Notes under the pieces: generated by a model
What the model was told of the DNA's origin: nothing
Database searches by the model: none
The model's input: the letters and a program-made list of their open reading frames with translations, nothing else
Source of the DNA: Isurus oxyrinchus
Lineage: Eukaryota
Direction: 5' to 3'
NCBI GenBank assembly: GCA_026770705.1
Contig: JANJGN010000007.1
Coordinates: 109,492,001 to 109,556,000, forward strand
DNA: 64,000 nucleotides
Shown here: piece by piece, positions 48,901 through 51,229 of the stretch
How positions within the stretch are numbered: the stretch's first letter is position 1
How the letters are laid out: the number at the start of each line of letters is the position of its first letter
Position numbers and translations under genes: made by a program

Positions 48901-51229
48901 CTTGCACTTTTCCTTTGCTCTTACAGTATTGTTTGGTAAAATCGTAGCGATTTCGTGACACGTGACTCACCATTGTTAAGAAAAAAATGTGGAATGTATT
49001 AATTCGATTAATATGTTAACGCAATTGTGTGCAGCATATTAACTGAAGCAAGACCCTCCCTGAAAATGGCGGGAAACCAAACGCACGATTATTTGCTAAG
49101 TACATAAAGTGAATATTAACAAACAGAGGTGTTGCAACCAGTTATTCTACATGTCTGGGCTGCAATCCAAATGAAACATTTGAAACACGTTCCCTCTGGA
49201 TCACTGAAAGTTGGCATTGAGGCCTGCCAACAAGACTGACCTATCTATAATGATGCCAAATCAACATACTGTCACTCTTGGTTCTGCAGCTCATGTGAGG
49301 AAAACTGATAACAGAAAATGCAAAATCCATTGGAGAAGTGTTTTATAATAAGAACGATAGGTAAAATAATTGACTGGAAGAGATAACCCGCTTGTTCATT
49401 TTTCTTTTTCCAATTTGGAAACTGCCGAGCCTCCACAGACAAGTTGACGGCGAGAATATTATTTCGGTTTGAGAACAGGTTTGGGTCAATAATATTTTAC
49501 TTACAAAGATTATATTTTCCGGTAGTTTATTTTAAAACTATTTATATGATTATGAATGTCAATAAACACTAAGAAATGTCCTTATCTGAATTTTACAGAT
49601 TGCTAACCTCACTTCTTGGCCTGTTGGCCTCGTACCTGAGCAGGAATTGGTAACAGTGTGAATGGCAATAGCGGGGTTCCGGAGAGAGATGTGAGTTACC
49701 AAACAGATGTAAACAGCTTCGTTCTGCATTGGCTGGGGCTCTTCCAAAGAGCTGGAGACTTCATACAGTCCTTCAGAGTTCTGCCGTTTAATCGGATTTA
49801 TCTCAGTTGAGATATTGATGCCATTTTTATACCAAACGAGTGTGAATTCGCCCGGGTAAAACGCAGCCGTTTGACACACAAGAGTCAGAGACGTAGATGA
49901 ATTGATTGCGGGAGGCTTAGGAAAAATCTTTAATGGAGCTGGGGCAGCTACGAACAGAAAATTAGGAAAATCGGGTTAGTGGAGAGATATTGAGCATAAG
50001 AAATAGGAAAGAAATGGCAGCCTTGCTGGCTCCTGTTTGTTAGTAACAATAGTTCTACCTACTTGTCTCCCCAAGAGATAAAAAAAATCTGTCCAACACT
50101 AAAAATAAAAGGAGGGTTTTAGTGGAAATAGGATAGCTCGCACAGGCGGAGTGTGGCAACTTTAGAAATTTACAAGGTTGAAAGTTCATTTCATTGGAAC
50201 TGAATGTGCTTGAGAAGGTAGATAAGGATATGCTGTTTCCCCGCTGGGAAATCAATAATATGAGGTTCGGGAGGGAAAGGCCCTGGAATAAGAAGTCTCG
50301 TGTAAAAACTACGTTTTGAGATAAACCTGTTACATTCTACTGAAATAAAGTCATATATCTGAGGCGGTATCTCCTCCTCCCTCTCCGCACACACTCCCTG
50401 ACTTTGCTGAGTATTTCCAGCATTTCGTGGTTATACTTCAGATTTCCAGAATCAGCATTACATCGCCTTTGTAATAAGTTTTGTGTTTTATACAACACAG
50501 CAAATGAAATGTCAGATTCCACCGCATAATTAATATTTGTGTACAGAGTTTCACTGTAAACGCATAAAGTTACTTGATAATATCAGAGACAACATAATAA
50601 AATAATGACAACACAGAGCCTTTGACGTTCCCACTCAATTCGGTCACTTACTGCAGACAATTAACCGGGATCCTGTTCCATTTCCACTATATTTTCCCTG
50701 ACGGATCATTGCACAGTGATAGGTTCCTGAGTCCTCGAAAGTCGCATTTTGCAGCTCAAGGAAACCACCTCCTTTAGCATTCATACCAAAGCGTGTTCTC
50801 TTATCGGCTCCTTTTTGCAGATATTCATCCCCACCCTGTTTCCACCAACGTACTTCGACCTCTGCATTGTCATGAGAAAGTGGGATTATGCAGTAGAAGG
50901 TGATGTCTGATCCCCTTAATGTAGTTACCTCTGTGGGACTTTGAGACACGCTGATCGAGGTTCCTGGGGCACCTGTTATAAAATATATTTAAGGTTTGTA
51001 TTAATTAATTGCATTTCAATGCGAAACCAGGCATTTTAGTACACATTTTTTGCGTGGAAATGCAAACGAGTTTGCAGAAGGATGAAGTATATTGAATTCA
51101 ACTGATGTGGTAACTATGAAAGATTTGCTTTGTATAATGGAACAGCTGGGTAAAGAATATTCCGGTACCTGTTGAAGTGATCCTCAGGCGGGACAGTAAC
51201 ATGAACAGAAACATCACATTCGACAACAT
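42934..51229 (-). CDS. Gene C: intact V(J)-C1-TM inhibitory-type receptor, 323 aa (ITIM LTYAAV + ITSM TAYAQI)
   Basis: Exons 51229-51169, 50972-50652, 49947-49636, 48585-48484, 44154-44111, 43737-43636 and 42963-42934 are all GT-AG and in frame (972 nt). Confidence 0.9.
43156..43602. mobile_element. Short Penelope insertion with inverted ends and a 16-bp TSD in the last intron of gene C
   Basis: TCGATATTTCTCTCAC at 43140-43155 and 43603-43618; ~100-bp inverted arms flank a minus-strand 5' ORF piece ([15 protein letters not shown]). Confidence 0.9.
43636..43737 (-). CDS. Gene C ITIM exon [34 protein letters not shown]
   Basis: 102 nt, phase 0/0. Confidence 0.9.
44111..44154 (-). CDS. Gene C 44-nt linker exon [15 protein letters not shown]
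   Basis: ttccag|...|gtaagt; KEE...EE matches gene A. Confidence 0.85.
44262..44313. repeat. (CA)n/(TA)n microsatellite
   Basis: Seen directly. Confidence 0.9.
44430..46335 (+). mobile_element. CR1 LINE (3' ~1.9 kb), antisense within a gene C intron
   Basis: [46 protein letters not shown]. Confidence 0.93.
46610..46940 (-). mobile_element. Diverged tRNA-derived SINE
   Basis: Resembles 51600-51955. Confidence 0.5.
46990..47982 (+). mobile_element. 3' fragment of the 12-15 kb LINE family with an internal 92-bp duplication
   Basis: Aligns with ~14080-14955; 47222-47313 is identical to 47728-47819. Confidence 0.92.
48484..48585 (-). CDS. Gene C transmembrane exon
   Basis: [35 protein letters not shown]|gtgagt. 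Confidence 0.9.
49636..49947 (-). CDS. Gene C C1 exon
   Basis: [23 protein letters not shown]...[10 protein letters not shown]...TNSCS; 312 nt. Confidence 0.95.
50652..50972 (-). CDS. Gene C V exon
   Basis: [45 protein letters not shown]; 321 nt. Confidence 0.95.
51169..51229 (-). CDS. Gene C leader exon [20 protein letters not shown]
   Basis: Hydrophobic, 61 nt, ACAG|gtacc donor as in gene A. Confidence 0.85.

Follow-up and report, generated by a model that had tools for sequence, protein, structure and literature searches.

A compact V domain without a predicted CDR2 hairpin in a germline-joined shark receptor family, likely independent of VNAR

In Isurus oxyrinchus, a stretch of 64,000 nucleotides (contig JANJGN010000007.1 of assembly GCA_026770705.1, positions 109,492,001 to 109,556,000, forward strand; hereafter the window) contains three genes, A, B and C, each with a V domain that is very short between its two conserved cysteines. 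A preliminary description had likened these domains to shark VNAR and had proposed either convergence on, or kinship with, the VNAR fold. The locus raises three questions: whether the shortness is real, which fold the domain adopts, and whether its origin is shared with VNAR.

Size of the V exon and extent of the family

Gene B consists of seven exons which, once six GT-AG introns are removed, give 323 codons without internal stops in the order leader-VJ-C1-TM-ITIM/ITSM; the tail carries LTYAAV (ITIM) and TAYAQI (ITSM-type). Gene C follows the same exon plan (Table 1). The splice between leader and V exon of gene B is found in one 279-nt contig of sequencing run X1, which skips the 196-nt intron (depth 5.1, one study) and whose source counts as RNA by the tool's guess, the holders listed having included no run on record as RNA; run X9 yielded no contig on 48400-51400. 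In all three genes, V and J-like segment share one exon, and within 300 bp of the three V exons we found no RSS nonamer, only isolated heptamers. The idea that exon B is a RAG substrate was rejected: its CACTGTG belongs to the Tyr-His-Cys-Ala codons and comes without a nonamer. The repeat-derived open frames of the window sit both between and inside the receptor genes.

Table 1. Features of the three receptor genes and repeat-derived sequence in the window. Cys-Cys is the number of residues between the two cysteines, which were located by a six-frame motif scan of the window.
Gene	Feature	Position	Strand	Remarks
B	leader exon	51169..51229	-	joined to V exon in one run X1 contig
B	germline-joined VJ exon	50652..50972	-	321 bp, AG/GT borders, phase 1-1; Cys-Cys 58 (Cys codons start 50892, end 50713); J-like G strand; Asn (sequon) at Phe/Trp position
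B	C1-set exon	49636..49947	-	stalk Cys at end; Pfam C1-set 46.3 bits
B	transmembrane exon	48484..48585	-	hydrophobic core without charged residue
B	first cytoplasmic exon	44111..44154	-	
B	exon with ITIM and first part of ITSM-type motif	43636..43737	-	LTYAAV
B	last coding exon	42934..42963	-	TAYAQI completed; stop
C	predicted leader exon	36423..36477	-	
C	VJ exon	36000..36317	-	open; Cys-Cys 57 at 36237-36061
C	C1 exon	33899..34210	-	by Pfam
C	transmembrane exon	32453..32572	-	uncharged
C	predicted last exon	29624..29713	-	single Tyr motif PTYAAV, a non-canonical ITIM; shorter than relatives'
A	leader exon	9610..9664	+	in-frame TAA 9646-9648
A	VJ exon	9838..10158	+	Cys-Cys 58 at 9918-10097; in-frame TAA 10110-10112; pseudogene in this assembly
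A	C1 exon	11086..11397	+	by Pfam
A	transmembrane exon	15503..15616	+	
A	two cytoplasmic exons	17636-17737, 17942-18073	+	ITIM-type motifs
	decayed repeat-derived, reverse-transcriptase-like open frames	12600-14300, 20100-25600, 46990-47930, 56444-56959		read by eye

The motif scan confirmed the preliminary counts, with 58, 58 and 57 residues for A, B and C as named here, and the distance of about 18 residues from the core Trp to the RF motif also held, the Arg of that motif standing at W+18 in gene B (W42 to R60). The same description had put conventional V domains at greater lengths and VNAR at about 60, and the genome itself agrees. Elsewhere in it, the motif matched in 29 of 31 sampled V-set loci, all with 64-75 residues between the cysteines, in a sample that leans to full-length domains since it comprises the top V-set matches; these loci are presumably VH, VL, TCR, nectin and NKp30-like, labels that we gave by motif. 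All five VNAR segments of the genome, which were located with a VNAR motif, have 60, and I-set domains (n = 5) have 46-55. The gene B domain possesses the hallmarks of a V-set – the cysteines of strands B and F, the core Trp, D-x-G-x-Y-x-C, and a Pfam V-set score above the cut-off. V-set is the best-scoring Pfam model for this exon (47.8 bits vs 30.5 for I-set); the other full V exon scores 34.6 vs 27.3 bits.

Two of the V exons, used as queries against the genome, found 49 and 51 matches, every one of them on contig C7; these merge into 52 places, i.e. 49 outside the window and the three window V exons. The motif was matched in 36 of the 52, invariably with a spacing of 53-58 (58 in 23 places, 57 in five, 55 in two and 53 in six), and 24 of the 36 places thus read by the motif script are stop-free with both splice sites. 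The places with 53 residues (L035, L043, L045, L046, L047 and L048) form a subfamily that is seven residues shorter than VNAR and has a shorter BC loop as well. On C7, two clusters 11 Mb apart (96.4-97.6 Mb and 108.6-110.0 Mb) and an outlier at 114.8 Mb make up the family; the clusters contain both orientations and many pseudogenes. NUP93 lies near the family at 117.4 Mb, and a gene with a long multi-homeodomain reading frame, which we take to be ZFHX3, at 155.7 Mb; the region is presumably the homologue of chicken 11 and human 16q.

Relatives in the databases belong to Mustelus, Scyliorhinus, Heterodontus, Heptranchias, Hemiscyllium, Chiloscyllium, Carcharodon, Pristis, Amblyraja and Callorhinchus. 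Their spacing is 53-59 overall, and 55-59 in the relatives from chimaera, skate and sawfish and in three other shark relatives; because the chimaera is included, the compact V is older than the chimaera-shark split. An artefact or a miscount as the cause of the short spacing is ruled out, since the exon is bounded by splice sites and the spacing recurs in paralogues and species. Hence the compact domain, intermediate between V and I sets, is real and family-wide, in a poorly described family of paired receptors.

Predicted fold of the compact domain

A single AlphaFold2 model of the gene B domain, based on an alignment of 27 paralogues (pLDDT 86.6, pTM 0.80), contains strands at residues 9-11, 14-17, 23-28, 38-44, 59-63, 69-73, 82-90, 93-97 and 101-105 according to DSSP. 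For the C'/C'' hairpin, the model offers no strand at residues 45-58 (pLDDT 90-92 over 41-60); a C' of two residues could slip a listing of strands of three residues, yet DSSP shows no E at 45-58. The predicted strand order is A-A'-B-C-D-E-F-G, with a non-strand stretch of 14 residues leading from C to D. The VNAR-like loss of C''/CDR2 put forward in the preliminary description is therefore seen in the model, which lacks C'/C'' strands. A VNAR folded as a control reached pLDDT 55 and pTM 0.36, lacked the G strand, and was left out as evidence.

The check that had been suggested along with that claim, structure prediction followed by a Foldseek search, thus turned up no C'/C'' pair, and VNARs fill most of the top rows (TM 0.68-0.79), accompanied by NKp30 (3noi, 0.76), TCR, VL, CD79b and NCAM. 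A wide search with VIA-align puts NCAM2 (Z 13.9, rmsd 2.1, 93 aligned), a skate VNAR (Z 13.6, rmsd 2.0, 98 aligned), TCR (Z 13.4) and CD79b (Z 13.3, rmsd 1.9, 92 aligned) side by side, and on a second look VL, VH, TCR, NCAM and VNAR tie at Z 13.4-14.4; the VNAR-heavy ranking by Foldseek would then reflect matched length. SIRP D1 is absent among the best matches (50 at most) listed by Foldseek and VIA-align. Neighbours in the ESM Atlas are V-set receptors, and an NCR3-like cluster is the second structure match (TM 0.86).

According to PMC8470474, VNAR itself is placed between the I and V sets, and the topologies of I-set and VNAR are almost identical. As VNAR sits between the two sets, resemblance to VNAR and resemblance to an I-set domain are equivalent here. 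The domain might accordingly be read as an I-set, an Ig domain of the adhesion type that happens to terminate in GxG, and comparison with V domains would be beside the point. Several observations agree with this: Ig1 of NCAM or NCAM2 ranks first or less than one Z unit from the top, the I-set spacing of 46-55 overlaps the family members at 53-55, and the model has the I-set features of a very short or missing C', no C'' and a split A/A'. What separates the family from its tied top structural matches, the I-set domain NCAM Ig1 and CD79b, is that its G strand is J-like, that it has a C1 domain as partner and that Pfam prefers V-set in both full exons. More precisely, the family combines a long FG loop with a G strand of the form GxG-S/T-x-L-x-V, a true C1 domain follows the V, and the Atlas neighbours are V-set receptors, which together make the I-set reading quite improbable. 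The preliminary description had named I-set classification as an outcome that would speak against a VNAR-type fold; it applies to the C'-C'' edge, which is I-set-like, but not to the domain according to Pfam and the J-like G strand, both of which say V.

Paired-receptor organization and other candidate identities

Among 41 relatives examined, six have no transmembrane segment. The other 35, with isoforms counted, comprise 13 with an ITIM and no transmembrane Arg, 15 with a transmembrane Arg and a tail of at most 48 residues, and seven that fit neither group; P0001 falls into one 90% cluster with P0003, and P0002 likewise with P0005, although one partner has the Arg and the other an ITIM/ITSM tail. 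To judge from these sequence features, the family is one of paired ITIM/activating receptors, and the product of gene B would likely act as an immune brake. Each window gene has one C1 exon; the skate model P0178 has two near-identical C1 domains. Cysteines that look unpaired are found where the G strand of V ends (window 50653-50655) and where C1 ends (49640-49642 region), and also in the L043 group; they could form interchain disulfides and thereby covalent dimers.

The G strand keeps GxG, and with the register set by the J consensus (F/W-G-x-G), none of 27 sequences has Phe or Trp at the J position, 20 of 27 have Asn, and 18 of 27 an N-x-S/T sequon. The J Phe/Trp is central to VH-VL pairing in Fv structures; with this residue absent and a glycan sequon usually in its place, pairing of the Fv type seems unlikely. 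The members vary strongly in the later part of the BC loop, along the C-D strap, in strand D and in the FG loop, and also in strands A and A'. Positive selection over the whole domain is not seen in 32 paralogue pairs (dN/dS 0.21-1.12, one pair above 1).

A functional model can be proposed on this basis. Since the Phe/Trp of the Fv interface is missing and usually replaced by a sequon, each V would bind a cell-surface ligand alone, through the BC loop, C-D strap and FG loop. By analogy with known receptor families, binding would lead to ITIM/ITSM phosphorylation and recruitment of SHP-1/2, and sister genes with a transmembrane Arg would use FcR-gamma or CD3-zeta as signalling partner. The V domains of VNAR, SIRP and NKp30 bind as single domains, and solo binding, shared with VNAR, may have made the loss of C'' possible in both folds.

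Several RefSeq models of the relatives are automatically named SIRP-alpha/beta-like, which suggests a second alternative: divergent orthologues of SIRP (or of PRARP or NCR3) whose V shrank in cartilaginous fish. The gene plan fits well, for SIRP-alpha/beta also have a VJ-type V followed by C1, pairs with ITIM/ITSM or a charged transmembrane segment, and a cluster with pseudogenes; the NCR3-like cluster of the Atlas points the same way. The automatic names disagree among themselves, however, and include tapasin-related, CD276, NCR3LG1-like and class I-like (H-2 class I). Furthermore, the family V is much shorter than that of SIRP, there is one C1 instead of two, and the transmembrane Arg lies near the outer leaflet, whereas SIRP-beta carries a central Lys. 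As for position, SEP-domain genes occur on C12 and C5 and none was found on C7, a result for one marker, NSFL1C, a neighbour of SIRP in mammals. A search with an opioid-peptide marker matched only on C5 and is uninformative. NKp30/NCR3 resembles the family in its single-exon VJ, the transmembrane Arg of activating forms, and its structure (3noi above; 6yjp, Z 12.8); it has no C1 domain, and the V exons of this genome that we read as NCR3-like – L096 and L097, two near-identical single-exon VJ domains at 105.12-105.14 Mb of C21 – have a spacing of 65. L063, putatively NKp30-like, gave no NKp30 match in the PDB. All in all, orthology with SIRP, PRARP or NCR3 appears unlikely.

PRARP and the VJ-C1 genes of tetrapods reportedly are non-rearranging VJ-C1 genes with ITIM/ITSM. 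They are named as VJ genes in PMC10751288 and PMC11599192, and the former cites PRARP as MHC-linked. Compared by description only, PRARP differs in this linkage from the family, which is located near NUP93 and has about 50 copies. The UrIg and UrIg2 genes, also non-rearranging shark genes with VJ and C1, differ in that they have at least three C1 domains, occur as single loci within either the MHC or the antigen receptor complex, and have a V nearest to VH; UrIg2 has V-V disulfides at the G strand, and the accessible text describes no paired ITIM/Arg system for either (PMC12227049, in part).

Outside cartilaginous fish, tandem compact VJ receptors of reptiles – P0151 from a viper, P0071 and P0131 from turtles – have three to four domains with a spacing of 51-62 and ITIM tails; KAM3829136.1 from viper and XP_053904980.1 from turtle are genes of this type. 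Their domains are the top non-family scorers on the family profile (37-57 bits, maximum 56.7), a biased score since they were retrieved by that profile. In a reverse search of this genome with P0151, 15 of 21 weak matches were family V exons. The reptile receptors may be relatives of the shark family, with unstarred tree support. P0087 from a ray, likewise a tandem compact VJ (spacing 60), groups apart from the family, which suggests that V domains were shortened on more than two occasions. A profile search of 1.84 billion representatives listed as its 150 best, all above about 125 bits, mostly titin-like multi-domain proteins, and a near-length search found nothing. Among the literature listings and passages searched we found no paper on the family or the compact V; the supplements of PMC12227049 and PMC10751288 may list its genes, and Ohta 2019, Flajnik 2023, Kinlein 2021, Fu 2019, as well as Dornburg and Yoder 2022, may cover it.

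Probable convergence with VNAR and its implications

Family and VNAR are alike in a short Cys-Cys spacing (53-59 vs 60), in the absence of C''/CDR2, which is predicted for the family, and in a fold between V and I sets. They differ in that VNAR rearranges, keeps a long C-C' loop and is three residues longer from D to F, and in that the family is germline-joined with one C1 and either an ITIM or a transmembrane Arg. The shortening is distributed differently as well: the segments Cys-Trp, Trp-Arg and Arg-Cys have 14/17/25 residues in gene B vs 13/17/28 in VNAR. From Trp to Arg, the family reads W-W-K-x-G-x-x-x-aromatic-L, with Leu at W+9 (L51) in at least 90% of rows and eight residues on to Arg, whereas in VNAR a long loop comes first, Ile stands at W+13, and four residues lead on to Arg. 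If these two hydrophobic residues are the core residue of C', the C-C' hairpin was cut back in the family, where a longer strap remains, while in VNAR the hairpin stayed and the part behind it was lost. The GGRY of VNAR is absent from the family, and the layout of the VNAR deletion (long C-C' loop, long HV4) is unmatched.

Phylogenetic trees took 13 of 33 family rows and three of five VNARs over few columns (84-86), with NAR-TCR V, a lungfish SIRP-like row and a goby NITR-like row outside the sets. The first tree (44 rows, 84 columns) recovers the family as a single branch (99/95*) and places VNAR with TCR/Ig V (80/76); forcing family and VNAR together costs 12.3 log units and is not rejected (AU p 0.196). 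For the second tree, in a choice made after the first had been seen, five long rows were removed and one NCR3-like row was added; here the family is monophyletic (93/90), a starred clade unites VNAR and TCR/Ig V (98/94*), and the joint clade of family and VNAR is barely rejected (AU p 0.049). A VNAR profile gives the 33 family rows a median of 9.2 and a maximum of 18.7 bits, as against 28.6 for both the top TCR row and the top VL row. Conversely, the family profile scores four of five VNARs at 24-27 bits, other rearranging V domains at 16-24, and four of five I-set rows at 34-40, the last having been retrieved by the same profile. The five germline VNAR segments (L085-L089), each of which ends in an RSS heptamer, are located on C26, C38 (two), C42 and C126, and the one on C26 shares its contig with VH and TCR V; L085 is substituted at several conserved positions.

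Kinship would mean that the family V and VNAR go back to one C''-less cell-surface V and that the genes survive, in germline form, from the receptor that gave rise to VNAR. The identical Trp-to-Arg length, the VNAR-dominated Foldseek rows, the AU value of the full row set and the slight preference of the family profile for VNARs are in line with this, and PMC4622739 contains a proposal that VNAR stems from a cell-surface receptor. Contrary to kinship are the grouping of VNAR with TCR/Ig V, the preference of the VNAR profile for TCR and VL over the family, the different place of the conserved hydrophobe and the D-to-F length, the separate contigs, and a VIA-align ranking without VNAR preference; we regard such a common source as highly improbable. 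The broader version, by which some 50 germline VJ-C1 receptors keep the singly binding, C''-less V of the cell-surface ancestor of VNAR, also retained in the reptile tandem-VJ ITIM receptors, has just as slim a chance. Of the two options in the preliminary description, convergence is therefore the better one by trees, profiles and segments, and kinship finds no support in them: the compact domain likely became small independently of VNAR. Taken together, we consider it probable that the gene B exon encodes the outer compact VJ domain of an intact, non-rearranging VJ-C1-TM-ITIM/ITSM receptor, likely an inhibitory paired member, which has no C''/CDR2 hairpin in its predicted fold and likely shrank on its own.

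Compactness alone is only moderately surprising, as short domains intermediate between V and I sets are known elsewhere. If the VNAR-ancestor reading were true, the VNAR fold would be older than its RAG-split gene. If the likeness is convergent, sharks arrived twice at a stable single V without CDR2, once for an antibody that rearranges and once for a large family of germline receptors; the latter would have been retained since the chimaera-shark split, and the pair would be a natural comparison for the benefit of the small fold. The family also provides dozens of diverged minimal Ig scaffolds, some of them smaller than VNAR (53 vs 60). It may also be the system of self/non-self receptors that is still missing for NK or myeloid cells of sharks.
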